From assembly GCF_053078305.1 (NCBI RefSeq), contig NZ_CP166879.1: a stretch of DNA of 64,000 nt; one strand, written 5' to 3'. The notes beneath the pieces are model-generated. The model was given only the letters and a program-made list of their open reading frames with translations. It was not told the origin of the DNA and did not search any database. Of the stretch, positions 2,901 to 62,642 are shown one piece after another (positions within the stretch are counted from its first letter, which is position 1; every line of letters starts with the position of its first letter). Made by a program: the position numbers and the translations under genes.

Positions 2901-3005
2901 GCAACGCAACGCAACGCAACGCAACGCAACGCAACGCAACGCAACGCAACGCAACGCAACGCAACGCAACGCAACGCAACGCAACGCAACGCAACGCAAC
3001 GCAAC
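2901..3005. repeat. perfect pentanucleotide tract (GCAAC)x21
   Basis: 21 uninterrupted GCAAC units read directly at 2901-3005 (a degenerate unit precedes at 2896-2900); lies 64 bp upstream of the mod ATG. Confidence 0.95.
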
Positions 3006-3068
3006 AATATGCTCGCCTGAACTCTCTCCGTCAAGTACCTCTACCTCCGTGCTTTCTGGAGGTACTGT

Positions 3069-5105: not shown

Positions 5106-5107
5106 TC

Positions 5108-8020: not shown

Positions 8021-8103
8021 ACACATGCATGATAACAAAGTGGAGGTGGTTTCACCCCCACTTTATAATTATACACACATCACAAAATTCGCAGGTGAGT
8101 TCA

Positions 8104-21601: not shown

Positions 21602-21620
21602 GCAAATCATTATCATTACG
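21602..21620. promoter_or_regulatory. Fur-box-like sequence upstream of TonB-dependent receptor
   Basis: GCAAATCATTATCATTACG contains AATCATTATC, matching half of the Fur consensus GATAATGATAATCATTATC; about 20 bp upstream of the ATG. Confidence 0.55.
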
Positions 21621-21640
21621 ATTTTAGAAAAGGGAAATTT

Positions 21641-23689: not shown

Positions 23690-24362
23690 GAGAATATAGA
23701 TAACCTGAGGCCGTGCGCCTCAGGTACCAGTATAGTAATCAGTAACGTCAGCTTCCAGGTTGTAATGCTTTTAATTTTGATAAAAATAAACTTAATAAAT
23801 TACATTTGTTAAATATTGATAATTTTAATTTGGTTTTATTACTCCAGTTATACTCACACTCTATCTTTACACAATTCATCACCATTACACCTCCATAGCC
23901 TGTTGATTTAAAAGATTTAATTTCCTGTGAAACAATCAGGCCTGTATGAACCTGATTATACCACAGAATCTTTTAAGTTATTTAAATTTAACTCTCGGGC
24001 TTTTCTGTCAGTAAAATCAGAAAAATTGCAGGATTTCGTTTTTTTTGCTGCGAAGTGAAATGTATCTCATTTTTACTGCCTTCGCCAGTGCGTCAGGCAA
24101 TGGCAGGTAGTGTACCTGCATTCTGCTGTAACGCGTAATGTCGGGTAGTTTACTTAAACTTAATATGTTTTATGTTTGCATTATTATAAATCACTTTATT
24201 GCCTTTTGTCTGCTTTTTAATGGTTCCCGTTTTGTTCACTTCTGGCTTTATAAAAAATGGATGCTGAAGAAATGAAGGTAGTCCACCTTACATAATATTC
24301 ATGCATGATTTTTATGCTATTCCGACTGAGTGGAAGAAAATAAAGGAGAAAAGAGGGTATAT

Positions 24363-45792: not shown

Positions 45793-47358
45793 TTAATCCT
45801 TTAGTTCTAATCCCATCGGTTGTTCCAAAAAAATACGCTCATCCATAATTTTCAAAGACGGAGAAATTTCTGGAACAAACTCCATGCATTCAATAATATT
45901 TTTTTGCAAATCGACTCCGGGCGCTATTTCAATCAACTCAATGGATTTTTGAGAAAGTCTAAAAACAGCACGCTCTGTAATATAAAACACTTCTTTATTA
46001 TTTTTCCTTGCAGTATCTGACGAGAAAGTGATTTGTTGAACCTTCTTAATGAATTTTTTTACACTCCCATCCTCTTTTATATGCAATTTCCCATTGCTGA
46101 CATAAATCTTATTTTTTCCAGCAGTGAAAGAACCGCAGAAATATACTTTTTTAGCATTTTGAGTTATGTTAATAAATCCTCCGCACCCTGCAATTTTTGT
46201 TCCAAATTTAGAAACATTTAAATCTCCTTTTTCATCTGTTTCAGCTAATCCAAGAAACGCTTGATCAAGCCCACCACCGTCATAGAAATCAAACATCTGA
46301 TCCTGAGTAATTATCGCCTGAGGGAACGAAGAAGCTCCAAATGACAGACCTCCAGCAGGCGTTCCTCCAATTGCACCTGGTTCAACAGTTGCGATAAGTT
46401 CGGAGGTAATCCCCTCTTCATCTGTTACTTCAGCTATAACTTCAGGTGCCCCTATGCCATAATTTACAACTGCATTTTTTTTCAGTTCCATTGCGGCTCG
46501 TCGAGCTATAATTTTTTTTATATCAAGAGGGCGTGTTTCTTTGTCTTTTACCTCTTTTACACCTTTCCCGACATAGCTGAAGTTCATATACTCCGCAAAA
46601 GTTTGCATATGATATTCATCTTCAGAAACAACAACAGCATCAACATAAATACCTGGAATTCTGACTTGTAAAGGATCTAATGTACCGTCACGTACTATTT
46701 GTTTTACCTGAACAATAACTTTCCCTCCATTATTATGGACTAACTGGGCTGCAGCTAGGTTTTCAAGAATCAAACATTCATCCTCCATTGTTATATTCCC
46801 ACTCTGATCAGATGTAGTACCTCTGAGGATTGCTATGTTAGCATCAATCTTCTTATAAAATAGGTTTTCCACACCATTAATTTCTGTGACGGACACAATA
46901 TCCTCTTGTGTTTTATCATTAATTTTCCCGCCCTCTACGCGGGGATCAACAAATGTACCTAAACCAACATGAGTTAATGTCCCTAACTTCCCAGCAGCAC
47001 AATCTCGGAATAAATGGCAAATAACCCCTTGAGGAAGATTATAACCCGTAATTTTTCCCTCATTAGCTAACTTCTGCAATTTAGGTATTAGTCCCCAATG
47101 CCCGCCAATGGCACTAGTGACAAGCCCCTCATGAGATAAATGATTGACAGCTTTTGTTCCTGCATCCCCTTGACCAGCAGCAAAAATAATCTTGAGATTT
47201 CTTGGTTTTCCCGTTTTCAAAAAACGATCTTCTATGCCTTTTTCTATACACTCAGGAACAACTGCACCAATAAATCCGCCAAGAATAACACAATCATTAT
47301 CATGAATCATATTTACGGCATCTTCTAGTGTACATTGTTTTCTTGAATAAATAGACAT
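45793..47358 (-). CDS. acyl-CoA:acetate/3-ketoacid CoA-transferase (YdiF / propionate-CoA-transferase-like)
   Basis: 521-aa fused family-I CoA-transferase. Confidence 0.75.
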   Translation of the reverse strand: MSIYSRKQCTLEDAVNMIHDNDCVILGGFIGAVVPECIEKGIEDRFLKTGKPRNLKIIFAAGQGDAGTKAVNHLSHEGLVTSAIGGHWGLIPKLQKLANEGKITGYNLPQGVICHLFRDCAAGKLGTLTHVGLGTFVDPRVEGGKINDKTQEDIVSVTEINGVENLFYKKIDANIAILRGTTSDQSGNITMEDECLILENLAAAQLVHNNGGKVIVQVKQIVRDGTLDPLQVRIPGIYVDAVVVSEDEYHMQTFAEYMNFSYVGKGVKEVKDKETRPLDIKKIIARRAAMELKKNAVVNYGIGAPEVIAEVTDEEGITSELIATVEPGAIGGTPAGGLSFGASSFPQAIITQDQMFDFYDGGGLDQAFLGLAETDEKGDLNVSKFGTKIAGCGGFINITQNAKKVYFCGSFTAGKNKIYVSNGKLHIKEDGSVKKFIKKVQQITFSSDTARKNNKEVFYITERAVFRLSQKSIELIEIAPGVDLQKNIIECMEFVPEISPSLKIMDERIFLEQPMGLELKD

Positions 47359-47370
47359 ATTAAACCTCTT

Positions 47371-48708
47371 TTAAATTAAAAATAAGAATGCATATACCAA
47401 CATGGAGAGAACCGCAAATGCGGGAAACACACAAGTAACAATAAAAAGCTCTTTATAACTTTGCTTATGAGATAAGCCACAAACTCCTAGCAATGTGATA
47501 ATAAAGCCAGAATGAGGAAGCGTATCCAGCGTTGATGCACTAAAAACAATAATACGATGCATTAAACCTGGCGAAATATTCTGAGCTTGAGATAGTTCTA
47601 ATAAGTCTTGACCAAACGTTACCATAACTAATCCCACCCCTCCTGATGTTGAGCCCACTATTCCCGAAAGAATTGCTGTACCTATAATTGCAGGAAATAA
47701 TGCTACTCCAGGAATAGAAAAAATTGTTGTTTGAATAAGGGTAAACACAGGAAGGACTTTAATTACCCCACCATAACCAACTTGGGTAGATGTATTAAAT
47801 ATTGGTAAAAGAGACTCTGTAGCACCTAATGTAAGTGTTTTCTTTATATCACTTTTAAAAGTATTCCAGTAAATACAAATAGTGACGACAATAGCAATTG
47901 CTATGGAAATTAAAATTGCCCATGTTCCCTGAACACCTCCAAAATCTCTGTAATAATCAACCACTTCGTCAATCTGGAAAAAATATGTTAAAAATGCATT
48001 TCCTATAATAACTATCAGTATAGGTATAAATGCCAAAGTAACTTTTCCAGTCTCAAGATTACAGTCATTACTTACTTCTGTACCATATCCTTCTCCTTTT
48101 ATCTTAGCATTTTTAATTTTTGCAGACATATACCATACAGCGAACAATAACCATACAGCAGTGCCAACGATACCAATTACTAAACCTGAATATATGGTTG
48201 TATTGAACACAGGAATTGGTATTGCATTTATAAACTGGGCAGAACCAGGAGCCACATATGCTGGTAAGCAACCAGCACAGATAGCACTGGGTAATAATCT
48301 TTGAGGGTAATTACTTTTTATAAATATAGTTCTCGCAATAGGTAAAACTGCAAAAACCACAACAAAAACTGATATTCCTCCATAAGTTAATAAAAATGAT
48401 GCAATAATAACTGCAATAATAGCCCTCTTCTCACCCATTTTATCTGATATAAAATGGGCAATAGTTAATGCTGCACCACTTGCATTCATTAATGTTCCAA
48501 AAACAGCACCAACAAGAAATATAGGGAAGTATGCGGATATAAAACTCACAACCGAGTCCATAAATGGACCGGTCCATGAATAAAAAACAGGAATATCACT
48601 TCCCATAAAGACAGCCAGCATTGCCATCAAAGGGGATACTATCAGAACTGGAAAACCACGATATATGAGATATATTAGTAAAATAAGTGAAATTATCAAG
48701 CCTATCAT
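47371..48708 (-). CDS. GntP-family permease (putative short-chain carboxylate transporter)
   Basis: multi-pass membrane protein; ORF starts with TTG at 48759, ATG at 48708 (MIGLIISL) is likelier. Confidence 0.65.
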   Translation of the reverse strand: MIGLIISLILLIYLIYRGFPVLIVSPLMAMLAVFMGSDIPVFYSWTGPFMDSVVSFISAYFPIFLVGAVFGTLMNASGAALTIAHFISDKMGEKRAIIAVIIASFLLTYGGISVFVVVFAVLPIARTIFIKSNYPQRLLPSAICAGCLPAYVAPGSAQFINAIPIPVFNTTIYSGLVIGIVGTAVWLLFAVWYMSAKIKNAKIKGEGYGTEVSNDCNLETGKVTLAFIPILIVIIGNAFLTYFFQIDEVVDYYRDFGGVQGTWAILISIAIAIVVTICIYWNTFKSDIKKTLTLGATESLLPIFNTSTQVGYGGVIKVLPVFTLIQTTIFSIPGVALFPAIIGTAILSGIVGSTSGGVGLVMVTFGQDLLELSQAQNISPGLMHRIIVFSASTLDTLPHSGFIITLLGVCGLSHKQSYKELFIVTCVFPAFAVLSMLVYAFLFLI

Positions 48709-48777
48709 ATTATAACTCTCAATATTAATATTATTATTTAAGTATCTCCTGACAAGCAAGAGATACTTATTTCAAAG

Positions 48778-49986
48778 TTAACTGCACAATTCGATAATAA
48801 CAGCTGTCCCCATTCCTCCACCAATACAAAGGGAGGCGAGACCTCTTTTTTTATTATTTTTTATCATTTGATATAATAAAGAAACAACAATTCTTGAGCC
48901 AGATGCTCCCAAAGGATGGCCTAGAGCTATCGCCCCTCCATTAACATTTGTTCTTTGATTTAGCCAATCAATACTAACTGAGTGATTTTCAGAAATACTT
49001 TTTAAGACCCCTATTGCCTGAGCCGCAAACGCCTCGTTAATTTCAAAAAGATCAATATCTTTAATATCCAGTTTTGCTTTTTTTAATGCATTATCTATTG
49101 CTGGAACAGGCCCCAGCCCCATCACTGATGCATCAACGCCTCCTTGTCCAAATGAGCGAATTTCAGCCAAAGGTTGTAATTCCAATGTCTGAATTGCTTT
49201 CTCTGAAGTAAGAATAAGAGCTGCTGCACCATCGTTTATTCCAGATGAATTTCCTGCAGTCACGGTACCATTTTTTTCAAATGCTGGACGTAACACAGAA
49301 AGTTTCTCTAATGAGGAGTCTCTACGAGGATACTCATCTGTAGTAACTTCAATATTTCCTTTTCGGGTATGTACTTGTACCGGAGTAATTTCATCCTCAA
49401 ATTCTCCATTGTCAATGGCCTTTAAGGCTCTCTTCTGACTTTCAAGCGCAAATGTATCCTGTTCATATCTTGTAATATTGAACTGTCGGGCTATATTTTC
49501 TGCTGTAATCCCCATATGATAGTGATTAAAAGCATCAGTAAGACCATCTGTAATAAGAGAGTCACTCATTACCTGATTACCCATTCGTACACCACTTCTT
49601 GCATGATGATCAATCAAGTAAGGTGCCTGACTCATATTCTCTATGCCTGCCGTAACAACAACATCCATATCTCCACTACGAATTTTCATTGCAGCATCGA
49701 TAATAGTTTTCATACCACTACCACAAATCATATTCAAAGTCAGAGCCGGAGTTTTCCATGGTATACCGGCTTTAACAGCAGCTTGTCTACCTGGCCCCAT
49801 TCCTTGTCCAGCAGACAAAACATTCCCGACAATAACTTCATCAATACATTCAACGTTTATTCTGCTCTGTTTAATTGCTGCAGATATCGCAATTGCTCCA
49901 AGATCTGAAGCTGACACTGTTGATAACGAACCGCCAAAACATCCTATAGGCGTTCTTTTTGCCCCTGTAATATATACTTTTTCCAT
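48778..49986 (-). CDS. acetyl-CoA C-acetyltransferase (thiolase II)
   Basis: 402 aa; thiolase signatures (NMICGSGMK, GAIALGHPLGASG, CIGGGMG); AGGAGG RBS. Confidence 0.9.
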   Translation of the reverse strand: MEKVYITGAKRTPIGCFGGSLSTVSASDLGAIAISAAIKQSRINVECIDEVIVGNVLSAGQGMGPGRQAAVKAGIPWKTPALTLNMICGSGMKTIIDAAMKIRSGDMDVVVTAGIENMSQAPYLIDHHARSGVRMGNQVMSDSLITDGLTDAFNHYHMGITAENIARQFNITRYEQDTFALESQKRALKAIDNGEFEDEITPVQVHTRKGNIEVTTDEYPRRDSSLEKLSVLRPAFEKNGTVTAGNSSGINDGAAALILTSEKAIQTLELQPLAEIRSFGQGGVDASVMGLGPVPAIDNALKKAKLDIKDIDLFEINEAFAAQAIGVLKSISENHSVSIDWLNQRTNVNGGAIALGHPLGASGSRIVVSLLYQMIKNNKKRGLASLCIGGGMGTAVIIELCS

Positions 49987-49995
49987 TCCTCCTCC

Positions 49996-50715
49996 TTAAA
50001 TAACTAATCCACCATCAATTTTTAATGTTTGACCAGTAATAAAAGATGATTTCTCACTAGCTAAAAAAAGAACACCATTCGAAATATCCTCAGGTGTTGC
50101 CATTCGCCCTAAAGGGGTTTTAGCTATCATATGGTTAATGACTTTCTCTGGCAGATTTTCTGTCATCGGGGTAATAACGAATCCTGGAGCTACACAATTC
50201 ACGCGTACTTTAGCACCTTTTCGGGAAAATTCTTTAGCCCAACCTTTAGACATTGCAATAACACCACCTTTAGTTGCGGCATAATTACTCTGACCTATAT
50301 TACCATCAGTTCCTACAACAGAAGACATTGTTATGATTGCCCCATGATTTTGTTCCATCATAATAGGTGCAACTGCCTGAGTTATATTAAAAACACCTTT
50401 AAGGTTTATATCAATTACAATATCCCAGTCTTGCTCTGTCATATTATTGATCAGATTATCTCTTGTAACTCCTGCGTTATTAACTAAAACATCTATTCTA
50501 CCTTCATCAGAATATATCTTACTAATTACTGTATTAATCGAATCCCGATCGCAAACATCAAGAATTACCGGAGTGACATTCTCTGGATAGGATTTATCAG
50601 TATGTTTTATATCACATGCATATACTCTTTTTACCTCTGATTTAGAAAAATCCTCCACAATTTTTCTTCCTATACCTTGTGCTGCTCCAGTAACTATACA
50701 TACTTTATTACGCAT
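49996..50715 (-). CDS. SDR-family 3-oxoacyl reductase (FabG / acetoacetyl-CoA reductase-like)
   Basis: 239 aa from ATG 50715; TGAAQGIGR Rossmann motif and Y-x3-K (YAATK) active site. Confidence 0.85.
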   Translation of the reverse strand: MRNKVCIVTGAAQGIGRKIVEDFSKSEVKRVYACDIKHTDKSYPENVTPVILDVCDRDSINTVISKIYSDEGRIDVLVNNAGVTRDNLINNMTEQDWDIVIDINLKGVFNITQAVAPIMMEQNHGAIITMSSVVGTDGNIGQSNYAATKGGVIAMSKGWAKEFSRKGAKVRVNCVAPGFVITPMTENLPEKVINHMIAKTPLGRMATPEDISNGVLFLASEKSSFITGQTLKIDGGLVI

Positions 50716-51088
50716 TTTTATTCCCTCATTTTTGAATATAGAACAGGATGCCTTTCGTTTTGCAACAAAACATCTTTTAACCATTCTCGTTCATAAAGTA
50801 AAACCTTAAAAATACAGAATCACAAAAAAAAAACACTTATAACACTCACGCAACAATCAAAAAATACATTATTTCCCAATGAGTTATCTGTTAATGAAAA
50901 AACAACCACTATATAAAGTGCAATAATCATCACAAACACCTCTTCAAAAATGAAAAACTGTACTTTATAAATAAAACACAAACCACATTACTTCACATTT
51001 ATCAGAAAAATTAAAAACAAAACTTGTTTGATAAATTTAATATGATATTTTCATATTGCATTGAAGTTTTGTTTGCTTGGGTTGATTC

Positions 51089-52003
51089 ATGATACTTGAT
51101 AAACTTTTATTCTTTACTGAAATCATAAATTCCGGTTCTATATCCGGCGCATCTAATTGCTTTAACATAAGCACTGCAACAGGTAGTCGTTGGGTAAAAG
51201 ATCTTGAAGATAAACTAAATGTTAAATTACTAAGAATCTCCAACAGAGGTATTGAACCTACAGAAGCAGGTATGGTTTTATTCAAAGAGTTTTCTTCTAT
51301 TAATGAAGACATAAATCAATTATATAAAAAGATAAATACCATAAACAATTCCAACAGTGGGGTTATTTCGATATCATCGACCCCATTATTTACAATGAAT
51401 TTTCTATCTACTATTATTGGTGAATATCTTTATAAATATCCTGACATACGTTTTCGCGTAGAGGAGTCACCAATTATTAATGAAAACAATAAAAATATTG
51501 ATTTTTATATAAAAGCATCGTCCACATATAAAGGACATATAGAAAATAATAGCGACTTAGTAAAAAAAGTGTTGTTCAGCTATCCATTGATACTATGCTG
51601 TTCTCCTGACTATATAAATAAATATGGAATACCCTCCAATCCATTCAGTTTAAAGCATCATAACTGTTTATACGCATCTTCTCTTGTTGGAGGGAATTGT
51701 TGGCATTTCTATATTCGTGATGAAATAACAACATTGGAAATAGCTAAAACAGTAAACATTGAAAATAGTGAGTTTTTAAAAGCAGTTGCACTAATGGGTG
51801 GGGGGATAGCATACTTACCATATCCTCTTGTTCAATCAGAAATACTGTCAGGAAAACTAGTATCAATAATGAATGATTATATTAAAACTCGTTTTGAAGT
51901 AAGTCTGTGGTTTAGGAAGCCCCTATCCTTGCGTTGTGTTACATTTAGGAATTTCCTAGTAGAAAGAGCCTCACAACTCAAGGATACTGTACAATTCAGA
52001 TAA
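51089..52003 (+). CDS. LysR-family transcriptional regulator, divergent from the acyl-CoA operon
   Basis: 304 aa; N-terminal HTH and LysR substrate-binding-domain-like remainder; AT-rich like the operon. Confidence 0.8.
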   Translation: MILDKLLFFTEIINSGSISGASNCFNISTATGSRWVKDLEDKLNVKLLRISNRGIEPTEAGMVLFKEFSSINEDINQLYKKINTINNSNSGVISISSTPLFTMNFLSTIIGEYLYKYPDIRFRVEESPIINENNKNIDFYIKASSTYKGHIENNSDLVKKVLFSYPLILCCSPDYINKYGIPSNPFSLKHHNCLYASSLVGGNCWHFYIRDEITTLEIAKTVNIENSEFLKAVALMGGGIAYLPYPLVQSEILSGKLVSIMNDYIKTRFEVSLWFRKPLSLRCVTFRNFLVERASQLKDTVQFR

Positions 52004-52176
52004 ATCACTTAACTTGATGCATCAATCACCCAGCGACCAGTTATGCTCATCATAATCATTATTCAGGTGTGAGCATAATGAGCATAACCCAGCGATCCAG
52101 ACAGGTTCCCTGAATCTCCAGACAACCAATATCAATTAAATAAGTGATAGTCTAAAAACTAGTCATTAGAGAACAG

Positions 52177-52460
52177 ATGATTGATGTCTTAGGGCCGGAG
52201 AAACGCGGACGGCGTACCACACAGGAAAAGATCGCTATTGTTCAGCAGAACTTTGAACCGGGAATAACTGTCTCCCTCGTTGCACGGCAACACGGTGTGA
52301 CAGCCAGTTATTTCTCTGGCGTAAGCAATACCAGGAAGGAAATCTCACTGCTGTGGCTGCTGGAGAACAGGTTGTTCTGGCCTCTGAGCTTGCTGCCGCC
52401 ATGAAGCACATTAAAGAACTCCAGCGCCTGCCCGGCAAGAAATCTATGGTCCCCACCATT
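52177..52460 (+). pseudogene. IS2 orfA (InsC-like), interrupted
   Basis: [29 protein letters not shown] matches IS3-family/IS2 OrfA; reading frame breaks, then the IS110 element begins. Confidence 0.65.
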
Positions 52461-53812
52461 TTTGCAACACTGATTTTGATTGATGTTGGCTTGCCTAAAT
52501 CTATCCGGCGTCATTATGGGCATGGATGCCCGCGCCTCGATGAGTTCCGCACCTGATGAGCCCAAAAAACCATCCGGCTTCAGTGAGCCATTTTCTTGCT
52601 GAGGCTTTTCATCAGGCCGATATGCCGTTCATGTCATCAATAATCAGTCTTCGCAAAACCAGATTGGGAACTACTTTAATTCATGATTAACCTGCCAGCC
52701 AGATTGGCGCCATCGTTACCTTTCGAACACAGTCTGCTGTGTTGTGATTGCCCACGCTATCCGGGCTAATTTGTTGGCCAGTGCGCAACATACTACGCTG
52801 GAGTGTTTTCTTGCCAACAACGCCCTGACCCAATCCGCCAACCTTCCTGACTGATTCTCGATTCTCTGAATAAAGGATCTTGCGCACTGAACGAGTAACC
52901 GTCGCAGATTTTTATCTCCACGTTTACTTATCCCTAAAAGTGTATTTTTACCACCTGTGCTGTACTGCCGGGGTACCAGACCGGTTGAAGCAGCAAAGTC
53001 CCGACTGCAGCTATATTGTTTACCGTCTCCCAGCTGCGATGACAGTACGCTGGCGGTTATCGGACCAATACCGGGTATTGTCTGAAGACGTTGTCCTACC
53101 TCATCACGACTCAGTTCCTGCTCCAGTGCGATTTCAAGCTCGGTGATCTGTCCGACAAGATAAATATAATGGGCATGTAAGCGCATCAGTAACTGCGCCA
53201 GATAGGGAGGAAGTTCGTTCTCTGCAAGTACTGTTGAAAGTCGTTTTACCACTGCGACTCCTGTCGGCATACTGATGCCAAATTCCAGCAAAAAAGCATG
53301 CATCTGATTGGTCGTTTTGACTTTATCACTGACCAATGATTCCCTGGCCCGGTGAAGCGCCCGCATGGCCTGCTGAGCTTCTGTTCGTGGTTGCACAAAT
53401 CGCATGGAGGGACGAGATGCCGCTTCGCATATGGCTTCTGCATCGACAAAATCGTTCTTGTTGCTCTTAACAAAAGGGCGAACGAACTGCGGAGAAATCA
53501 ATTTTGCTTCATGACCTAAATCAGCAATCCGGCGAGCCATAAAATGAGCTCCGGCGCAGGCTTCCATCACAACGGTAGACGAGGCACAGCCTGCCAGAAA
53601 CTCAATAAGTTTGGTACGGGTAAACTTTTTACGCAGCAATACCTTGCCTGACTTATCTTGGCAGTGAATGTGAAAGGAATGCTTGCCAAGATCTATACCA
53701 ATAAGCGTAATGTTTTGCATGATGGTCTTCTCCATGAAAGAAAAACACTCTACTAGGGTACAGCTCACAGGGTGGTGGGGACCATCTCATTAACGATGGA
53801 AAATTAACTCAT
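52455..53812 (-). mobile_element. IS110-family insertion sequence nested in IS2
   Basis: boundaries inferred from where the IS2 orfA sequence is split (GKKSM | TMEN); carries an intact transposase. Confidence 0.55.
52716..53720 (-). CDS. IS110-family transposase / recombinase
   Basis: 334 aa from ATG 53720 (GGAGAAG RBS); N-terminal LIGIDLGKHSF (RuvC-like DEDD motif) typical of IS110 family. Confidence 0.8.
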   Translation of the reverse strand: MQNITLIGIDLGKHSFHIHCQDKSGKVLLRKKFTRTKLIEFLAGCASSTVVMEACAGAHFMARRIADLGHEAKLISPQFVRPFVKSNKNDFVDAEAICEAASRPSMRFVQPRTEAQQAMRALHRARESLVSDKVKTTNQMHAFLLEFGISMPTGVAVVKRLSTVLAENELPPYLAQLLMRLHAHYIYLVGQITELEIALEQELSRDEVGQRLQTIPGIGPITASVLSSQLGDGKQYSCSRDFAASTGLVPRQYSTGGKNTLLGISKRGDKNLRRLLVQCARSFIQRIENQSGRLADWVRALLARKHSSVVCCALANKLARIAWAITTQQTVFER

Positions 53813-53814
53813 TA

Positions 53815-54428
53815 GAGAAGCCGTTGAATATTGGCGTGCAAAAAAGTGGATAGCGCACGCCCAATATTGCCCGGGAATGGGGAGTAAGTTTCGTCAGCCG
53901 TTATCTCCGTGTGTTGCGTGCGCAGTTGCACGTCATTCTCAGACGAACCGATGACTGGAAGGATGGCCGCCGCATGATACGGATGTTTATCTCCGTAATA
54001 ACATGGTGTACACCATGTTATCGGAGAGCTGCCCACGTATGGTTATCGTCGGCTGTGAAACAGTACAGGACGTCATGCTGGGAGCGGTAGAACACCGCTT
54101 CGGCAGCGACCTTCCTGCGTCTCCAGTGGAGTGCCTGACGGATAATAGTTCATGCTATCAGGCTAATGAAACACGCCAGTTCGCCCGGATGTTGGAACTT
54201 GAACCGAAGAACACGGCGGTGCGGTATCCGGAGAGTAACGGCATAGCAGAGAGCTTCGTGAAAACGATAAAGCGTGACTACATCAGTATCATGCCCAAAC
54301 CAGACGGGTTAACGGCAGCAAAGAACCTTGCAGAGGCGTTCGAGCATTATAACGAATGGCATCCACATAGTGCGCTGGGTTATCGCTCTCCACGGGAATA
54401 TCTGCGGCGGCGGGCAGTAATGGGTTAA
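53815..54428 (+). pseudogene. IS2 orfA C-terminus and orfB (InsD-like) with internal deletion and stop
   Basis: ENELLKEAVEY... then [15 protein letters not shown] and C-terminal [53 protein letters not shown] match IS2 orfB; the middle is missing. Confidence 0.65.
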
Positions 54429-54499
54429 GTGATACCAGATGTCTGGAAATATAGGAGCAAATCCACCACGCATGGAGCCTGTTAAGACTCTCACTCTCA

Positions 54500-54763
54500 T
54501 CATTCTCCCTTCTGAGTCCCAACGAAACGACCAAAACGCTGAGTAAAGCGGGCAACATTGCCTTCTGATGCCACCGTTCTGAGTTTACCGGTATAGAACG
54601 GATGCGATTTGGAGGAAACGTCAATCGTCACATACGGATACGTCACACCATCCAGTTCAATCTCGCGATCTGTTTTGATGGTAGAACCTATTTTAAAGTA
54701 CTCATCCACACTCGTGTCATGGAACACTACTGTGCGGTATTCAGGATGGATATTTGGTTTCAT
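54500..54763 (-). CDS. ykgM: 50S ribosomal protein L31 type B (zinc-independent paralog)
   Basis: 87 aa, [30 protein letters not shown]..., matches E. coli YkgM as I recall it. Confidence 0.9.
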
Positions 54764-54776
54764 CTCTCTTCACTCA

Positions 54777-54797
54777 TGTTATAACATAACAATAAGA
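54777..54797. promoter_or_regulatory. Zur-box-like palindrome upstream of ykgM
   Basis: ATGTTATAACATAACAATAAG resembles the Zur consensus (TGTTATA..TATAACA); 14-34 bp upstream of the start. Confidence 0.5.
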
Positions 54798-54952
54798 TAC
54801 ATTCTCAGCTAGATCATTTCAACAGAATCCCCGAGCCCAAGGGTAATGTGGCATCGCAGCCTCTCATCAAATGGAAGACATGTGATTGCACATTTATCAT
54901 ACAAGACGTATGATAACACTGTGTTATTTATCCTGCTGCCGAGGGTATAGAT

Positions 54953-55195
54953 ATGAATAACGAATCTGAAAAAGCAATGTGGCGTTGTAAGCCTGTGGAT
55001 AATCCATGGACGTTGGATTCATTACTAAAAAAGACTATTTCTGCTGTTTTACCTGCATCAGACAAAGTTTCACACCAAAATAAAAACAAATTACGTAATA
55101 ATGAATTCATTAAAATTGAGCATCCATGCTCAAAGTCTGAATCCAGAATCGATGGTGACTACATCATTAGTGGAGGAACAGAATACCGTTTGTAA
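54953..55195 (+). CDS. hypothetical small protein
   Basis: 80-aa ORF with a GAGGG RBS; no family recognised. Confidence 0.3.
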   Translation: MNNESEKAMWRCKPVDNPWTLDSLLKKTISAVLPASDKVSHQNKNKLRNNEFIKIEHPCSKSESRIDGDYIISGGTEYRL

Positions 55196-55242
55196 TTAAG
55201 CAGGAGAATTTTCTGTAAATTCTCCTGTAACTTTTTTACTTC

Positions 55243-56748
55243 CTATTTTATACCTCGATTAGCAATACTTCCTGCACTCGAAGCTGCACCTTTCGCTTCC
55301 GAAATACCATTCGGTAATCCTCGACTGATTCCATCGCCAATATGAACACCAGCCCAGGACAACGCTCCCAGCCACACTGCCGGCAAGACGAGAAACATCG
55401 TCCCCATCACCAGATTCATTATCAGATCATCCGATGTGTTCTGGAATCCCATCATATTGAACCGGGTATGTGTATCCGAACTGTACAGCGCCGTCAGCAT
55501 CCAGCTGTCAAGCCACCGTGCAAGCTCCCACCAGAACGTCAGAAAGTGTACCGCAAACACCACAAACGTCAGTGTGATTAACGTCGACAGTTCATATGCC
55601 GCAAACGCCAGAATCAGCGGTATCATGATGTAAATCGCCATCAGTATTATCGACTGTACCATCGGCAGTGCCTGCCGCATTGCATCCAGTGCCGGAAACG
55701 CACCCAGTGCTGCTACCGCACTGCCCGCCGTTCCCGCAATCCGGGCCACCGCATTCATGGTCGTCATATCTGCATTGCCACCATAGCCACGATACACCTC
55801 TCCCCCCTGAGAGAGCGTCAGGTTTGCCGGACTCACCAGACGCTTGATCACCTCCTCCTTATAATCCACCTGACTACTGCCAATCATCTTCATTGCAGCT
55901 GACAGACGTAACCAGTAATGGTCACTGACCTCCTCCATGACCCGTTTTTTCAGCCCCACACTACTGTCACTCCACCACTCCCGGCATGTCGGATAGCCTC
56001 CCCGCCCCGTATCCGGTCGTCCGCTGTCACGTGCTGTATTCCACGGGAACGCAGCCCGCGGCATCTTTGACTGCAGCGTCCCGTAATCCCCCTGCATGAA
56101 TGTGGCGCTCCCTATCCAGGAGATATCATCAAGCACTTTTTTATCTTTACTCTGCCCCTGATCACGCTGTTTCCACATATACAGTGCCAGTGAATAACAG
56201 TCGTTCATAAAGTCCTGCAGCTCATCAGCAAGTGCCCTGTTTTCTATAAACGTTCGCTGGATCTCAAAACGCAACTGGCGCAAATCAGGCCGGCACGGAA
56301 TCGAAGCCACTGCCGCCTGGGTGACACCTTTCGACAATTTATGAACCACCACCCACCATACCGGGGCTGCAGCAGTCTGATCCCCTATACTGCTGATCAC
56401 CCCACTGTACCCCGTCTCTCCGGGCTCTTCAGGTGTCCATACCCCACAGGTCTGTGCCCTGGATTTATCGAATGACAGCGTATCCAGCGTCACCTGTACC
56501 AGAGGAACACAGCAGGATATCATCACAAAAAAAGCACCATAGAGAACATGCTCAATACGCGGCAGGGAAAGCATCCCTTTGTTTCCCTCATCCGCACCTT
56601 CTTCCCTGACTTTCAGCCAGATCCCGATGATCCTGAATGCCAGTGGCAGGGCAAACAGTCCTGTGCTGATCAACACATTCCACAGACCGTTATTCACCAC
56701 CCAGCCCAGCAGAGTCAGAAAATATTCCAGATAGTTATTTGTGGTCAT
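55243..56748 (-). CDS. conjugative-transfer membrane protein, TraG N-terminal-domain-like (ICE-type T4SS)
   Basis: 501 aa with transmembrane segments at both ends and a large central domain; last gene of a co-directional T4SS array. Confidence 0.55.
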   Translation of the reverse strand: MTTNNYLEYFLTLLGWVVNNGLWNVLISTGLFALPLAFRIIGIWLKVREEGADEGNKGMLSLPRIEHVLYGAFFVMISCCVPLVQVTLDTLSFDKSRAQTCGVWTPEEPGETGYSGVISSIGDQTAAAPVWWVVVHKLSKGVTQAAVASIPCRPDLRQLRFEIQRTFIENRALADELQDFMNDCYSLALYMWKQRDQGQSKDKKVLDDISWIGSATFMQGDYGTLQSKMPRAAFPWNTARDSGRPDTGRGGYPTCREWWSDSSVGLKKRVMEEVSDHYWLRLSAAMKMIGSSQVDYKEEVIKRLVSPANLTLSQGGEVYRGYGGNADMTTMNAVARIAGTAGSAVAALGAFPALDAMRQALPMVQSIILMAIYIMIPLILAFAAYELSTLITLTFVVFAVHFLTFWWELARWLDSWMLTALYSSDTHTRFNMMGFQNTSDDLIMNLVMGTMFLVLPAVWLGALSWAGVHIGDGISRGLPNGISEAKGAASSAGSIANRGIK

Positions 56749-56754
56749 GATTGC

Positions 56755-57096
56755 TCAACGCCCCGGCTCAGCAAAAATGGCGTATTCACACAGCAGGATA
56801 AACAGAACACTGACTGTGGCCATACGCAGAAAAGAAGCCCGGTATTCTGCCCTGAACCCCGGCGCATGCCAGATCCTCCACCCCAGCCATCCGATCGCAC
56901 TGTAAAGACACAGACGCCATCCCAGCCAGCCATAACGTGTCTCATACATCCACTCCCGCAGGGCCGCAAATCCTTCTGCGTGACGTATACCGGTATCGGC
57001 CAGCCAGAGGGAAAACACGGTAATCCCTGTCAGCAACAGCGTATACAGGGCGAATACCTTCATCCTCTTTTTCACCCGGCCATAAATTCTGCTCAT
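56755..57096 (-). CDS. ICE membrane protein
   Basis: ORF 56755..57147; ATG at 57096 has an AAGGAG RBS just after the upstream stop; hydrophobic. Confidence 0.45.
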   Translation of the reverse strand: MSRIYGRVKKRMKVFALYTLLLTGITVFSLWLADTGIRHAEGFAALREWMYETRYGWLGWRLCLYSAIGWLGWRIWHAPGFRAEYRASFLRMATVSVLFILLCEYAIFAEPGR

Positions 57097-57100
57097 CCTC

Positions 57101-58525
57101 TCACTCCTTATCCGGGGCATCGAGAGAATGGATACGGCTGTCAGCATTGTCAGCCTGCTGGATCATCGGGTTATTCCCCACACGCTCGTTATCCCGTTCA
57201 ATGATGGTCAGAACACTGTTACGCGCCAGATCCCGCTTCAGCTCCATCTCGTTTTTCAGCGCCATAATTTCCCGATCCAGCGCCTCAATACGGCGTTCCC
57301 CCTCTTCCAGTGCAGCAGGCTGAGCTGCAGCATACGGCTCGGCCATCCCCGTGAGCAGCATCCTGCGCATCAGCAGCGCCGTTTCAACGGTATCCGCCAT
57401 GGCCAGTTCTCCCGCCAGACGCGACGTCAGGGCACCATTGTCCGGATCACGCTGCAGGGCACGGATCACTCCCGCTGTCACAGACAGACTCCCGGCTTTC
57501 AGTTTTGCCAGATTCCCGGCTGTCGGCTTGTCACGACCATTGACCATACCTGCCAGCAGTTCCGTGTTAACCCGCGTCGCTTCTTCAAGCATCGGCGCAA
57601 ACCCCGTGCCGGCAATACTGGTCCCCGGCTGCTGATCAGCATCCCCGCTGGTACATGCCTTTGCATCACCACAGGTCCGCATGGATTTATCCCCCAGAAC
57701 CTTCACCACCGCCCGGGCAGCTTCCTCTGCATTACGGTATTTCATGCAGGCACTCCCGTTACAGTTCCCGGGACTGACACTGGATGTACTGGTCGAAGGC
57801 AGACTGTTCATCATATTGAAACCGGCAGCTGTCAGATCATGTGTCGGCCGGATAGCAGACTGTCCCGCTCCACCACGCTGCTGCCCTCCGATCCAGCGTT
57901 GCCCCTCCTCCCCGGTAACCTGACGACCTGCTTCATCCCCTTTGATCGCATCACCGTCCCCCGTATTCACAATTTTTTTGTACTCCTCGAGCATGGCCGC
58001 CTGCGTCCACTTATTGCTGTCCGTGAACTCCATCATGCGTTTCGCCATGTTCTGACAATTGAGCTGCGCTTTGTCGAATGCCACATTCGCCTGCAGTACA
58101 CCGTTGGTCAGCATGTCATACAGCCCCGGATTAGCCCGCTGTATCACCATTGCCGGCAGACTCGCCACGGCTCCGCTCGCCCCCTGAATCACATCCCCCA
58201 TCAGGTTTTTGAAACCATCAGTGATCCCGTTCAGCTGGTTACCCACTGTTGTTTTCAGGTCAAAATTGCCACACATCAGATCACTGCTCCACCCGAGATC
58301 CACCCCAAGTTTCTGCATATTGCTGCGCGTTGCCGGCTGCGATATCACCGAGCCCCCTCCCAGGGTATAAAACAGTTTGTCTGATACTGCGCCGTCCACG
58401 GATTTACCGTAGCCAAACGCACTGTCATTCACTTTCGGCAGGGACAAAAAGTTTCCGTCAGCCTGTACCGTACCCGCACAAAGCACCACAGCCAGAACAG
58501 GTATCGTCATTTTCTGTTTCATCAC
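57101..58525 (-). CDS. ICE conjugal-transfer periplasmic protein (TraH-like)
   Basis: 474 aa; signal peptide; Gly/Asn-rich; C-terminal coiled coil; position relative to TraU- and TraG-like genes. Confidence 0.5.
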   Translation of the reverse strand: MMKQKMTIPVLAVVLCAGTVQADGNFLSLPKVNDSAFGYGKSVDGAVSDKLFYTLGGGSVISQPATRSNMQKLGVDLGWSSDLMCGNFDLKTTVGNQLNGITDGFKNLMGDVIQGASGAVASLPAMVIQRANPGLYDMLTNGVLQANVAFDKAQLNCQNMAKRMMEFTDSNKWTQAAMLEEYKKIVNTGDGDAIKGDEAGRQVTGEEGQRWIGGQQRGGAGQSAIRPTHDLTAAGFNMMNSLPSTSTSSVSPGNCNGSACMKYRNAEEAARAVVKVLGDKSMRTCGDAKACTSGDADQQPGTSIAGTGFAPMLEEATRVNTELLAGMVNGRDKPTAGNLAKLKAGSLSVTAGVIRALQRDPDNGALTSRLAGELAMADTVETALLMRRMLLTGMAEPYAAAQPAALEEGERRIEALDREIMALKNEMELKRDLARNSVLTIIERDNERVGNNPMIQQADNADSRIHSLDAPDKE

Positions 58526-58535
58526 TTCCCCTTAC

Positions 58536-59510
58536 TTAAAAATTCGTACTGCCCAGGAATGTCTGTCCCCGTTTCTTGCAGCAACTGTAGGGCTGCCACA
58601 GGGCAAAGGCAGCATTACCTGTTTCAGCCGCTTCATGCTCTCCGTCAGGGAAGACTGCGCAGGACGTGGAGACTGAAGGCGTCAGTCTCTGCCATTTATG
58701 GTTCCGGGTACCCGTATTTTCCTCCACCGGATCCGGTGGCCAGTAACCGTCCTTCTTCCCTGCTTTCACCGCCTGATAGACATGTGGCTCACCGGTGCGG
58801 GTGATAATGTCAGCCACCCGCTGGGCCACCACCGCAGCAGCTTTATCATCATCTGTCTGGGTCACGAACCCGGAGCGGGGATACACATTGCCCCACATAT
58901 TCTCTTCTTCCTGGCTGCCTATTTCGCGTTTACCGGGGATCAGGGCCTCCGGGTACAGTGACTCCGGTAGTCCTGTACGCCAGGCAATACTGTCAAGCGT
59001 ACTGAGAAAATAAGGAACAAAAGGTGTCACCGGTGACTCACAGGAATATCCCGGCACCATCCCTCCGATAAGCGTGGTGGCCGGGTGCCCTGTTGCATCG
59101 GCATATTTAAAACGGATTGACGAACGACGTTCCCCCTGTACCTTCATGTCTGCGGGGTTCCCTCCTCCTGCTGACAGACCGGCAATACCTTTGCTTATGG
59201 CATTCTCCGGACCACCGGCTGTACTGCTGACCGCCGACATTTCACGCCAGGGATTTCCGCCAGGTGCGGTATAGGTGGAAACAACCACTTCCGGGATATA
59301 ATGGGAAACTTTCACTGATGTTCTGACCTTGCAACTGAATTTGGTGCAGAACAGCCAGTAGCAAATCCCGCTGACCCGCCAGCTGATACAGCTCTGTGAG
59401 GCTGCACTGGCCACTATCTGCGCGGTGTTCAGCGATGCCTCTGCCACCGGCAATACCGCCATACTTAACAGCAGAACACCGGCGCGATGACGTGATGTGC
59501 AGGAAATCAT
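58536..59510 (-). CDS. TraU-like conjugal-transfer protein
   Basis: 324 aa; signal peptide and Cys/Trp-rich segment (SGICYWLFC) reminiscent of TraU family; start overlaps upstream stop. Confidence 0.55.
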   Translation of the reverse strand: MISCTSRHRAGVLLLSMAVLPVAEASLNTAQIVASAASQSCISWRVSGICYWLFCTKFSCKVRTSVKVSHYIPEVVVSTYTAPGGNPWREMSAVSSTAGGPENAISKGIAGLSAGGGNPADMKVQGERRSSIRFKYADATGHPATTLIGGMVPGYSCESPVTPFVPYFLSTLDSIAWRTGLPESLYPEALIPGKREIGSQEEENMWGNVYPRSGFVTQTDDDKAAAVVAQRVADIITRTGEPHVYQAVKAGKKDGYWPPDPVEENTGTRNHKWQRLTPSVSTSCAVFPDGEHEAAETGNAAFALWQPYSCCKKRGQTFLGSTNF

Positions 59511-59902
59511 GGCTGCCCTCCCCCTGTACGCAGTTGTTCTGCCAGCACCACGTCTGTGGTTCCGTAGACCACTTCACTGTCATCAAAAACCACAGCCGGA
59601 TATTTTTTCAGTCCAAGGGACCAGGCATGTGCTAATGCACGGTAGTGTTCAGCAAGCCCTGCCTGAAACGACTGCCATTCAGGCGACTGCATCCGTTCCA
59701 TGACACGGGCAGATGCTTCTGCAGGCTCTGCGGGAAGTACCCCGAAAAATGTATCCTGCGTCTGCTCAGGAGCATCAAGCAGGACAACACGAACACCTGC
59801 TGGCGGGTTCATGGGGCGCTGGTGCGAATCGGTATAAATTGTTGTACCGGCAGATGCAGCCACCGGTAGTATCAGGAAGGAATACAGTAACAGTCGGTAC
59901 AT
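59507..59902 (-). CDS. ICE periplasmic protein (small secreted)
   Basis: 131 aa with signal peptide MYRLLLYSFLILPVAASA; within the T4SS array. Confidence 0.45.
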   Translation of the reverse strand: MYRLLLYSFLILPVAASAGTTIYTDSHQRPMNPPAGVRVVLLDAPEQTQDTFFGVLPAEPAEASARVMERMQSPEWQSFQAGLAEHYRALAHAWSLGLKKYPAVVFDDSEVVYGTTDVVLAEQLRTGGGQP

Positions 59903-60037
59903 GATGCGACTCCGTCAGACAACTGGTATCTGACAGCGTGCGCAAAGGCAAAGGGACAATCAGCAATAAATTCAAAACCGGATGATAAAAATTAAGCCTC
60001 TTCCTCTGAATAACGCACACTCTGCATCTGAATCAAA

Positions 60038-60757
60038 TTAATCCGGTTGCATCACAGGAAGCCACTGATTCGGGGTAATACCATAATAACGCCTGAACAC
60101 AGAAATAAAATAAGAAGCACTGGCATAGCCACACAACTCTGCCACCCGGGAAATACGGTTTTCTCCCGCAGACAAAAGCTGAACGGCATACTGCATTCTC
60201 TCTTTCAGAAGAAGCTCACTGAAGGTCGTCAGCTCTTCCTGAAGCTTTTTCTTCAGTAAACTCTCACTTATATATAACAGACTGGCCACTTCACCCAGCA
60301 TCCATGGACGGGACAAATCAGCACTGATAATATTCTTCACCCGGACAGTGCAGCTCCGGATACACCCCGTGAGCAGGGCATGGAAATCCGGATGTTCCTC
60401 AAACAGCGCCAGACTGGAAAAAGCCACCGCATCCCTGAAGTACACCGGCGATGGTTCATCTGTAATAAGTTGTCTGATCAGACATTCCGCCAGCACGGAC
60501 ATCTGTGGCCGGATCTGTAAAAGCAAAGACGACGGGCTGACTGCCATACCGGATAATGGCGTGCAGAACCGCAGATACCGCCTCACCACCTCCTCACTGA
60601 GGTCAGCGATAAGGAAACGTCCGGTATGAGCCTGAAAAGCAGGGCGCAGATGCCCGGCAATCAGAAGCATTGTGCCGGCAGGTATGACAGAGTTCCTGTG
60701 CTCCAGACAAAGCATTGTCTGTTTGAGAGCCATAATGACAGCGCAGGTACAGGGCAT
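60038..60757 (-). CDS. AraC-family transcriptional regulator
   Basis: C-terminal AraC-type HTH (GENRISRVAELCGYASASYFISVFRRYYGITPNQW). Confidence 0.8.
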   Translation of the reverse strand: MPCTCAVIMALKQTMLCLEHRNSVIPAGTMLLIAGHLRPAFQAHTGRFLIADLSEEVVRRYLRFCTPLSGMAVSPSSLLLQIRPQMSVLAECLIRQLITDEPSPVYFRDAVAFSSLALFEEHPDFHALLTGCIRSCTVRVKNIISADLSRPWMLGEVASLLYISESLLKKKLQEELTTFSELLLKERMQYAVQLLSAGENRISRVAELCGYASASYFISVFRRYYGITPNQWLPVMQPD

Positions 60758-60861
60758 CGGATATCCGGTAAATATGCTGATTTATTAAAGAGACAGACAT
60801 GCCCCGTATATAAAATTCCGTGTCACCGGGTGCTGAAAAAAACTGCACCGGCGGCGCTCTT

Positions 60862-61323
60862 TTACTCCTCCGTTACGGATATTTCAGCTCCCTTTTCAGG
60901 AGCGGTATCCTTCACATCACTGAGACCGGACTGAGTCGCTTCAGAGACCTCTGCCACCTTTCCGGCTGCCTGTGTTTTTACTTCCTCCACGGCATCCTTC
61001 ACCTCGCTGAGCCCGGACTGAGCCGCTTCAGAGACCTCTGCCATCTTTCCGGCTGCCTGTGTTTTCACTTCCTCCACGGCATCCTTCACCTCGCTGAGCC
61101 CGGACTGAGCCGCTTCAGAAACCTCTGCCACTTTTCCGGCAGCCTGCATTTTCACGTCCTCCGCGGCATCCTTCACATCACTGAGTTGAGTCTGCGCAGC
61201 TTCCTTTATATCTGCCGCCTTCTTACTTACATTCTCCTTTGTCGCATCATCACAGCCCGCAACCAGAAATGGTGCGGAAATACATAACGCCAGAATTGTT
61301 TTTTTCAGCATACAATCTCTCAT
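60862..61323 (-). CDS. lipoprotein with 29-residue tandem repeats
   Basis: signal peptide with lipobox LVAGC; about 3.4 copies of AAGK(V/M)AEVSEAAQSGLSEVKDAVEEVKTQ. Confidence 0.6.
   Translation of the reverse strand: MRDCMLKKTILALCISAPFLVAGCDDATKENVSKKAADIKEAAQTQLSDVKDAAEDVKMQAAGKVAEVSEAAQSGLSEVKDAVEEVKTQAAGKMAEVSEAAQSGLSEVKDAVEEVKTQAAGKVAEVSEATQSGLSDVKDTAPEKGAEISVTEE
60909..61200. repeat. 87-bp tandem repeat (~3.4 copies) inside the lipoprotein gene
   Basis: repeat starts read at 60909, 60996, 61083 and 61170 with few substitutions. Confidence 0.85.
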
Positions 61324-61694
61324 TATTAAGTGTTAACGCAGAACAGCTTATATTTCGTCCCCGGAAAATGGTCAAAAGACAACCAGAACATCACAGTGTC
61401 AGGGCACACTCCCGGTATATGCTTTTATAACCATAACATGCTGTTCCTGATATTACCGGAAATGTGCCCACTACATTTAACCTGTTTTCAGCACCGGGTC
61501 ATCGGCTGTGCTGTATTTTTTATTCCCGTCACAGAAACACACTATTACCGTTGATTTCATGACGAATAAAATGAATAAATTCTCCCGTGGTCTTTACCAC
61601 CATTATTATACCAATAACACCATTTACACAGATACACTCCGGGACTATCTGTTTTTGCCCCCTCCGACTCCACCGGAGGTTTTTATTTTCATAC

Positions 61695-61940
61695 TCAGGC
61701 CTTCACCACTTCACACCGGAAGTCCTCCACCCTGACGCCAATATACCGTCCCGGCTCTTTTGCGGGCGCAAACAGTTTTTCACATTCATCCTGAGTCATT
61801 TTTTCATCCTGGTAACGCAGCCACTGAACCGGCATATTGCCTGGTTTGATTATTGTCGCAGTTATTTTATATCGCTTTCCCATACTGGCTCTCATCTCAA
61901 CACCAAAATCACCGGCTGAGCCATCACTCCGGTAATGCAT
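61695..61940 (-). CDS. hypothetical protein
   Basis: 81-aa ORF with ATG start; no family recognised. Confidence 0.3.
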   Translation of the reverse strand: MHYRSDGSAGDFGVEMRASMGKRYKITATIIKPGNMPVQWLRYQDEKMTQDECEKLFAPAKEPGRYIGVRVEDFRCEVVKA

Positions 61941-62064
61941 GCGAAAAAAAGTGAGCGTCTCAGCAATGGCTCATGCGGTGATTCTGTACGGTACCCGCAC
62001 AAAATACGGACACCAACAGCGTCGCAGAATACAACGAAGGCATCAGGGCAGCACCTCTCTCCCG

Positions 62065-62259
62065 CTATTTTTCAGAGTTCTTTACCCTCCTCCTGACACG
62101 GGAGTACAACCCTGACAGCATCCGGGCCAGTACATTCGCAAGCACCCATGAAAACACAGCCACACCCACAGCTCCCGCCAGAAACAGCACAGGTTCACTG
62201 GCAATTTGATCTGACAGCGATGGATACAGTGGTCCCGGAAAATCGATATCGCTCCTCAT
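62065..62259 (-). CDS. small membrane protein of the T4SS operon
   Basis: ORF 62065..62307; ATG at 62259 with a GAGGGG RBS, 1 nt after the upstream stop; one hydrophobic helix. Confidence 0.4.
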   Translation of the reverse strand: MRSDIDFPGPLYPSLSDQIASEPVLFLAGAVGVAVFSWVLANVLARMLSGLYSRVRRRVKNSEK

Positions 62260-62260
62260 A

Positions 62261-62638
62261 TCACCCCTCTCCCAGCCACAACAGCAGATAGAACAAATCC
62301 GCCGCATCAGTCACTGATATATACCAGCGGGGATGAATATACTCCTCCTCCGACGGCCAGCTCTCATGCCCACTCACAGTAAGCAGAATATGCACATACT
62401 GACCCTGCTGACCTTCCAGCATCACCGCCACACTGCTGTTCAGACCCACCCTCTGTGGCTGGCAACGGATACACTCCACCCGCCCCAGTTGCGCCGCCAG
62501 ATGCCCGCGAAGACGTTCAAGATTATCCCGTGTGGTGCAACTTATCCCCGGCGCACCCTGTGGCGGCAGAACAAACACACTTCCGGCGGGGTGAACAGCA
62601 GACACCACTTCCGGTTCCGGATACTTCAGACACAGCAT
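62261..62638 (-). CDS. hypothetical T4SS-operon protein
   Basis: ORF 62261..62692; ATG at 62638 with a GGGAG RBS, 5 nt after the ATPase stop. Confidence 0.4.
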   Translation of the reverse strand: MLCLKYPEPEVVSAVHPAGSVFVLPPQGAPGISCTTRDNLERLRGHLAAQLGRVECIRCQPQRVGLNSSVAVMLEGQQGQYVHILLTVSGHESWPSEEEYIHPRWYISVTDAADLFYLLLWLGEG

Positions 62639-62642
62639 AGTC

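Follow-up and report, generated by a model that had tools for sequence, protein, structure and literature searches.

Results

An accessory ykgM on an ICE-derived island. The ykgM gene in the window (the whole 64-kb stretch of E. coli DNA analysed) is an accessory copy carried on an island derived from an integrative conjugative element (ICE) of the TIGR0375x type (PFGI-1/pKLC102-like), and not the core locus. In all likelihood it entered this element as part of an ICE-borne ykgMO operon, from which ykgO was lost in one old IS2-linked event while ykgM was retained. The ykgM-ykgO operon encodes zinc-free paralogues of the ribosomal proteins L31 and L36 and is repressed by Zur. The location of the gene, its homology, the breakpoint, the scar shared with relatives, and the retention of the core pair in those relatives were all observed, and the features concerned are collected in Table 1.

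Table 1. Features at and around the ICE-borne ykgM, with positions in the window and the basis of each assignment
Feature	Position	Strand	Basis or description
ykgM, ICE-type allele, type-B L31	54500..54763	-	Intact ORF, 87 aa, ATG start, TGA stop
Zur operator (predicted) of ICE ykgM	54772..54791	.	18/20 match to TGWNAYRWTATAWYRTNWCA; 9-28 nt upstream of ATG
ykgM sigma-70-like promoter (predicted)	54794..54822	-	TTGAAA, 17-nt spacer, TATCTT; consensus scan
ykgO stub, first three codons	54492..54500	-	ATG AGA GTG vs ATG AAA GTG; alignments to intact ICE ykgMO and K-12
26-bp filler between IS2 end and ykgO stub	54466..54491	.	No homology to ykgO or IS2
Chimeric 63-codon ORF from ykgO ATG	54309..54500	-	Runs through filler into IS2 antisense strand; ORF list
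Degenerate IS2 relic	52098..54465	+	Aligned to K-12 IS2A; both inverted repeats; frameshifts; ~270-bp internal deletion
IS110-family element inside IS2 relic orfA part	52450..53791 (approximate)	-	350-aa ORF
80-aa hypothetical ORF, divergent from ykgM	54953..55195	+	No NCBIfam match; hypothetical in relatives
Terminator-like hairpin after 80-aa ORF	55200-55228		
traG (TraG_N domain), ICE conjugation module	55243..56748	-	Annotation in relatives; PF07916 on homologues
IreA-like TonB receptor in cargo slot	21554-23689		
YadA-like adhesin, 1454 aa, in cargo slot	24330-28694		

The ykgM allele and its origin. The product of the window ykgM scored 122.9 bits against the NCBIfam type-B L31 model NF002462.1 (cutoff 86), with residues 1-78 covered, and the gene is intact, as the first-pass annotation had stated for this L31 paralog. 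Type-A L31 carries CxxC zinc-binding cysteines. No cysteine occurs in the 87-aa translation, and the gene therefore encodes a zinc-independent form of L31. Compared to K-12 ykgM, nucleotide identity was 82.2%, with 47 nt differing, and 84/87 aa (97%) of the protein were conserved, the codon differences comprising 41 synonymous and 3 non-synonymous changes. The protein was 100% identical to the L31B encoded on the ICE of O22:H8 strain 154, and the nucleotide differences between these two genes were all synonymous (3/3). Across an index of a wider assembly collection, the exact 87-aa protein was recorded in 5286 blocks. Searches for a donor of the ICE-type allele, using an exact 20-mer and a degenerate pattern, returned zero matches in the GTDB species-representative genomes, and a plasmid collection gave only core-like (81-83%) or more distant ykgM copies.

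Homology to the K-12 locus starts about 60-90 nt 5' of the ykgM ATG, spanning promoter and operator, while the sequence further upstream of the promoter region is unrelated to K-12. In sister elements this homology continues through ykgO (84% at the nucleotide level) and then ends. The captured piece would amount to about half a kilobase, consisting of the operon and its own control region.

Predicted Zur operator and promoter. Upstream of ykgM, we scrutinized the DNA for the Zur pattern TGWNAYRWTATAWYRTNWCA, which represents the structure-based E. coli two-dimer site of Gilston et al. 2014 (PMC4219657). The predicted operator was the sole site with two or fewer mismatches to TGWNAYRWTATAWYRTNWCA within the 64-kb window. 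Sites of this quality readily arise by chance in a sequence of that length (32/100 shuffles), but alignment placed this one at a position homologous to the K-12 ykgM operator. The latter, GTTATGTTATAACATAAC, is a perfect 18-bp palindrome that agrees with TGWNAYRWTATAWYRTNWCA at 19/20 positions (1 mismatch). The window operator, GTTATGTTATAACATGAG, is identical to GTTATGTTATAACATAAC at 16/18 positions, the two that differ being outer ones, and fits 7/8 defined positions of the 18-bp inverted-repeat skeleton RNNNYRNNR*YNNYRNNNY. At the outermost skeleton pyrimidine GTTATGTTATAACATGAG has a G, whereas the K-12 operator ends in ...CATAAC. Given these two outer mismatches and the one lost skeleton position, Zur affinity may be lower and repression may weaken.

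The promoter region of the window ykgM is conserved with the region upstream of K-12 ykgM. By consensus prediction, its -10 element ends at 54794 and adjoins the Zur box at 54772-54791, which covers the expected start site. A box placed like this, on the -10/+1 region, overlaps the predicted core promoter, where bound Zur would block RNA polymerase. The Zur-like palindrome that had been noted just upstream of ykgM was thus recovered, with its 18/20 match. An Rfam scan of 51000-57000 (E<=1) gave no match.

The ykgO remnant. The ykgO ATG overlaps the ykgM stop codon as ATGA, the same as in K-12, and beyond this overlap little of the gene was left. Only ATGAGAGTG (54492-54500, reverse complement) aligned with the ykgO start ATGAAAGTG, and the megablast match to strain 154 begins exactly at 54492. 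Searching the whole 64-kb window for ykgO by tblastn (word size 2, E up to 1000) and by blastn-short gave nothing above noise (best E 0.3). A paired ykgM-ykgO arrangement, with an intact 46-aa ykgO directly downstream and joined by the ATGA overlap, was accordingly absent from the window. These data agree with the first-pass annotation that no ykgO is encoded after ykgM, 9 nt being all that is left, with no intact ykgO in 54430-54500 and in a species, E. coli, that does not naturally lack the gene. The IS2 end lies 34 bp from the ykgM stop (54466-54499) and not 70 bp as initially given, since 54430-54465 already belongs to IS2 as its right inverted repeat.

The 26-bp filler was present at the same junction only, in 7 complete E. 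coli genomes and 1 metagenome contig. On the minus strand at 54486-54500, MAFFT alignment past the 9-nt stub read GAGAGT-GAGAGT followed by CTTAAC, which equals ykgO codons 4-5 when a 5-nt insertion is allowed. CTTAAC may therefore be derived from ykgO, placing the true breakpoint after codon 5 with a small duplication; the filler beyond CTTAAC matched ykgO at 5/15 positions counted from the alignment, which is the chance level. An IS-excision footprint and a tandem duplication were each considered as the source of GAGAGTGAGAGT and rejected, since no simple scheme yields the sequence. The chimeric ORF that starts at the ykgO ATG appears in the ORF list as 54309..54503, beginning one ATG earlier, and judging from its sequence it is probably meaningless. 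If ykgM is translated, coupling could yield a Zur-controlled junk peptide from this frame.

The IS2 relic and the junction. The left inverted repeat of the IS2 relic begins at 52098 and the right one ends at 54465, and neither orfA nor orfB is intact, the largest fragment (141 aa) scoring 255 bits against IS2 TnpB (cutoff 597). No 5-bp target-site duplication surrounds the relic (flanks cgatc / ccacg); its left flank is DNA downstream of a LysR-family gene and its right flank is the 26-bp filler. The most economical reading of this junction is a cargo block bounded by IS2 that was joined via IS-associated deletion or illegitimate recombination. The earlier proposal that IS2 removed or displaced ykgO stands insofar as the locus formerly had a ykgO gene, which now breaks off at a junction abutting the IS2 end. 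Displacement by the insertion itself is at odds with the missing target-site duplication, the 26-bp filler, and the lack of a ykgO remainder in the window. Within the IS110-family element nested in the relic, the 350-aa ORF (52716-53768) scored 349 bits against NF033542 (RNA-guided type IS110). This insertion was missing at this position in strains JNEC-KY171 and SCU-171, and the same insertion was found in four public assemblies.

ICE context and the cargo slot. ORFs adjoining traG matched TIGR03755 (536 bits, cutoff 270) and TIGR03756 (429 bits, cutoff 188), and relatives carry TraG_N, TraU, TIGR03757, TIGR03751, TIGR03752, and a conjugative ATPase. TraG homologues 68-78% identical to that of the window were encoded in four ICE lineages, from Salmonella, Erwinia tracheiphila, another E. 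coli lineage, and Klebsiella, where the module comprises DUF1525, TraU, a 470-480-aa ORF, a 110-120-aa ORF, and TraG. Past TraG, the related ICEs hold 2-3 kb of assorted small genes, followed in those of Salmonella, Erwinia, and E. coli by a Phage_int_SAM_2/Integrase_1 gene. At this slot beside traG, none of the four related lineages carried an L31 or L36 gene. A role for ykgMO as a conserved feature of the ICE family is therefore ruled out, and the operon represents lineage-specific cargo.

The cargo slot of the window, measured from the ICE integrase-domain gene to traG (17086-54950), spans about 38 kb, as against 2-3 kb in the related ICEs of Salmonella, Erwinia, and E. coli. Alongside the receptor and adhesin listed in Table 1, it holds a ter cluster and a fabG / thiolase / GntP / CoA-transferase / MaoC / fabV block with a LysR regulator, and the LysR-family gene at the IS2 left flank belongs to this block. 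In strain STEC2018-553, window positions 20835-54277 were absent, with one deletion end within the IS2 relic. The only stretch near ykgM that differed among 99%-identical relatives was 55012-55336, comprising the 3' part of the 80-aa ORF and the spacer before traG. At the other end of the window, a complete type III restriction-modification pair occupied 3069-8020 (Mod, 678 aa, PDLC03641, 775 bits; Res, 970 aa, PDLC03649, 1610 bits). About 2220-8718 had no match in the JNEC-KY171 island stretch compared; between the matches flanking this segment, that strain carries subAB (subtilase cytotoxin) and a sialic-acid (nan) cluster. The element may be immobile, as IS insertions and pseudogenes are numerous both in the window and in related elements.

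Distribution of the allele and a single loss of ykgO. Megablast of 54440-55250 gave matches in 18/5426 complete E. coli genomes and in no plasmid, and a sensitive search with ykgM and its promoter found the allele at >=95% identity in 12/5426. The other 5058 matching genomes showed <=90% identity, nearly all falling at 80-90% and representing core copies. Five of the 12 carriers encoded an intact ykgO (O22:H8 strain 154, STEC1585, OkiPb01714, OkiPb01696, and CFIAFB20190157), and the gene order in those five was traG / small ORF / ykgM / ykgO / 395-aa ORF / DUF2569. ICE relatives with 99% identity over ykgM and traG have an intact ykgO that overlaps ykgM as ATGA. The scar seen in the window was found in 7/12 carriers, namely STEC2018-553, FHI_NMBU_10, JNEC-KY171, -174, -176, and -202, and SCU-171. 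In the wider assembly collection, stub, filler, and IS2 end recurred in 9/10 contexts of the exact protein, apart from one T/C SNP, and the same junction was also present in one metagenome contig. Because the junction is identical across genomes, the scar must have arisen once and then been inherited. In SCU-171, which has the same scar, the ICE ykgM is annotated as frameshifted, which shows that the extra ykgM copy can be lost without obvious consequence. Across complete E. coli genomes more broadly, 5731 ykgM-like places were counted in 5070 genomes, corresponding to about 660 extra copies.

The core ykgM-ykgO pair. A second ykgM copy was present in 12/12 carriers of the ICE allele, each genome having 2-3 ykgM places. 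JNEC-KY171, which is 99.5% identical to the window over 46000-64000 and has the same scar, encodes an intact ykgM (WP_000803999.1) and ykgO (WP_000866436.1) at its core locus (4093292-4093695), between ykgR and ykgL/ecpR. Core-type ykgM was found in 5070/5426 complete E. coli genomes, and 356/5426 (6.6%) were without any ykgM match. The core locus of the window's host lies outside the window; from its relatives, the core ykgMO was very probably kept. The first-pass annotation, which assumed the usual ykgM locus, had concluded that half of the zinc-starvation backup pair remained. The assumed location gives way to flanks made up of ICE genes, 82% nucleotide identity to the core gene, and an allele confined to 12/5426 genomes. 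The conclusion itself is probably wrong, since all 12 carriers have a second ykgM and JNEC-KY171 retains an intact core pair, so that the host would not be left with half of it.

Discussion

Proposed history and function. We propose that a ykgMO operon, together with some 70-90 bp holding its own promoter and operator, was captured as the first cargo beside traG in one E. coli ICE sublineage. More cargo, with a now degenerate IS2 copy at its boundary, would later have accreted in the slot, and the same accretion event would have removed ykgO past its third codon. The order of these events, like Zur binding, expression, and incorporation into the ribosome, is what we infer. Following the K-12 system, in which the L31p promoter is repressed tens- to hundreds-fold, Zn2-Zur on the box would block transcription of the ICE ykgM, and as zinc falls this gene would be derepressed together with the core ykgMO. 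L31B would then replace the zinc-binding L31, as expected from K-12, the net result being added L31B dosage over that from the chromosomal ykgMO. Since its reading frame is intact and it retains a promoter-like site and a near-consensus Zur box, the window ykgM is most likely under Zn2-Zur repression and induced when zinc is scarce. The N-terminal region of L31B is needed for repression of rpmE translation (Rasmussen et al. 2022, PMC9825181). The window protein shares residues 1-81 with K-12 L31B and should therefore repress rpmE translation as well.

Comparison to known systems. The window copy shares with K-12 ykgM-ykgO the gene itself, the promoter layout, the operator, and the ATGA overlap, and the whole N-terminal region is included in the 84/87 conserved residues. 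Unlike K-12, where ykgM lies between ykgR and ykgL, the window copy sits beside traG on an ICE, its L31B ends in the tail GTQKGE in place of STKKGA, its ykgO is cut to 9 nt, its operator matches at 16/18 positions, and its DNA is 82% identical. The closest counterpart is the ICE ykgMO of strain 154 (NZ_CP067426.1 4961322-4961725), whose ykgM is 98.9% identical at the nucleotide level with the same promoter and operator. Strain 154 and STEC1585 both carry the same allele in the same place, beside traG and the small divergent ORF, but there ykgO is complete (46 aa), and the 395-aa ORF and the DUF2569 gene come next. Past ykgO codon 3, the window instead has the filler, then the IS2 relic, and further cargo amounting to about 38 kb.

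A second point of comparison is the solo L31B gene of O157:H7 (WP_000803992.1), an extra island-borne L31B without L36B that likewise occurs in Shiga-toxin E. coli with ter genes. It is located at NZ_CP124742.1 121287-121550 (an EDL933 record labelled plasmid), about 1.2 kb downstream of ureG, and is followed by a hok/gef gene and a hairpin. In contrast to the window copy, it has a GTG start, the tail DAKKGG, its own terminator hairpin, and no ykgO or stub; it is about 80% identical at the nucleotide level to both the window copy and K-12, and only weak (3-mismatch) Zur-pattern sites lie about 100 and 230 nt upstream. The O157:H7 gene is probably an independent acquisition.

Zur control of island genes has a precedent in Vibrio cholerae, where the mobile island VSP-II is reported to carry a gene with a Zur box under the zinc-starvation regulon of the host (PMC8248653). 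The functions carried by VSP-II are novel (chemotaxis, congregation), whereas the window cargo only duplicates a core ribosomal paralogue. An island-borne second ykgM has been listed incidentally, as 'ykgM_2', in the genomic-island gene lists of FDN-4/EC958 (PMC12054123). In the literature searched, no paper connected ykgM to integrative conjugative elements.

Alternative explanations. Several other readings of the locus were weighed against an ICE-borne operon that lost ykgO. That this is the normal chromosomal ykgM locus, from which IS2 removed ykgO so that the cell keeps half of its zinc-starvation backup, is extremely unlikely. It would account for a ykgM stop 34 bp from the IS2 end and for the missing ykgO, and the 6.6% of complete E. 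coli genomes without a ykgM match indicate that core loss occurs in the species. The flanks, however, are ICE genes and not ykgR/ykgL/ecp, identity to the core gene is only 82%, and each complete genome with the allele has another ykgM, the core pair of JNEC-KY171 being intact. A simple IS2 insertion that split ykgO, with the 3' part surviving beyond the IS or nearby, would explain why both inverted repeats are present, yet we regard it as very unlikely: the left flank comes from downstream of the LysR gene and not from ykgO, the flanks cgatc and ccacg do not form a 5-bp direct repeat, foreign filler of 26 bp intervenes, and tblastn and blastn found no ykgO remainder in 64 kb. Least credible of all is the idea that this L31B gene was solo from the start. 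Solo L31B genes are known on E. coli islands, as in the ter/ure island of O157:H7, where a hairpin and no ykgO comes after the gene (NZ_CP124742.1), but that gene is a different allele (80% nt), the window still has 9 nt of ykgO overlapping ykgM as ATGA, and sister ICEs that are 97-99% identical across ykgM hold a complete ykgO.

The remaining alternative accepts the proposed structure and concerns function, with the ICE ykgM as a neutral passenger, silent or redundant, that decays along with a degenerate element. We consider this possible, if on balance doubtful. The core ykgMO makes the ICE copy redundant, related ICEs manage without ykgM, and the operator has two outer mismatches; moreover, the frameshift in SCU-171 and the many IS elements in the ICE suggest relaxed selection on the gene. 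Set against this are the exact 87-aa protein kept in very many assemblies (the 5286 index blocks), the synonymous nature of the ICE-allele differences (3/3 against strain 154), and the conservation of promoter and operator. These observations are few, and recent common ancestry would produce them as well.

Implications. The gene, its regulator, the operator type, and the IS are all known, and the loss of ykgO from the ICE-borne operon is a case of ordinary mobile-element decay. For annotation it illustrates a likely trap: an island ykgM can be taken for the core gene, and the truncation of its partner misread as a lost stress function. For the element, it means that a Zur-regulated ribosomal paralogue operon was picked up, operator included, by a conjugative element. 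The case carries little weight for biology at large, and extra island copies of L31B are fairly common in E. coli; broader interest would follow only if L31B dosage affects fitness under host zinc limitation. What keeps some mild interest is that extra L31B genes, frequently solo, turn up repeatedly on pathogen islands. The ICE copy and the ure-linked copy of O157 are two solo alleles unrelated to each other, and both occur on ter-carrying islands of Shiga-toxin E. coli. It seems improbable that extra L31B genes without L36B are selectively maintained cargo of pathogen islands as opposed to debris. If they were, Zur-controlled L31B dosage could speed the switch from L31 to L31B, and with it the repression of rpmE, under host zinc withholding.
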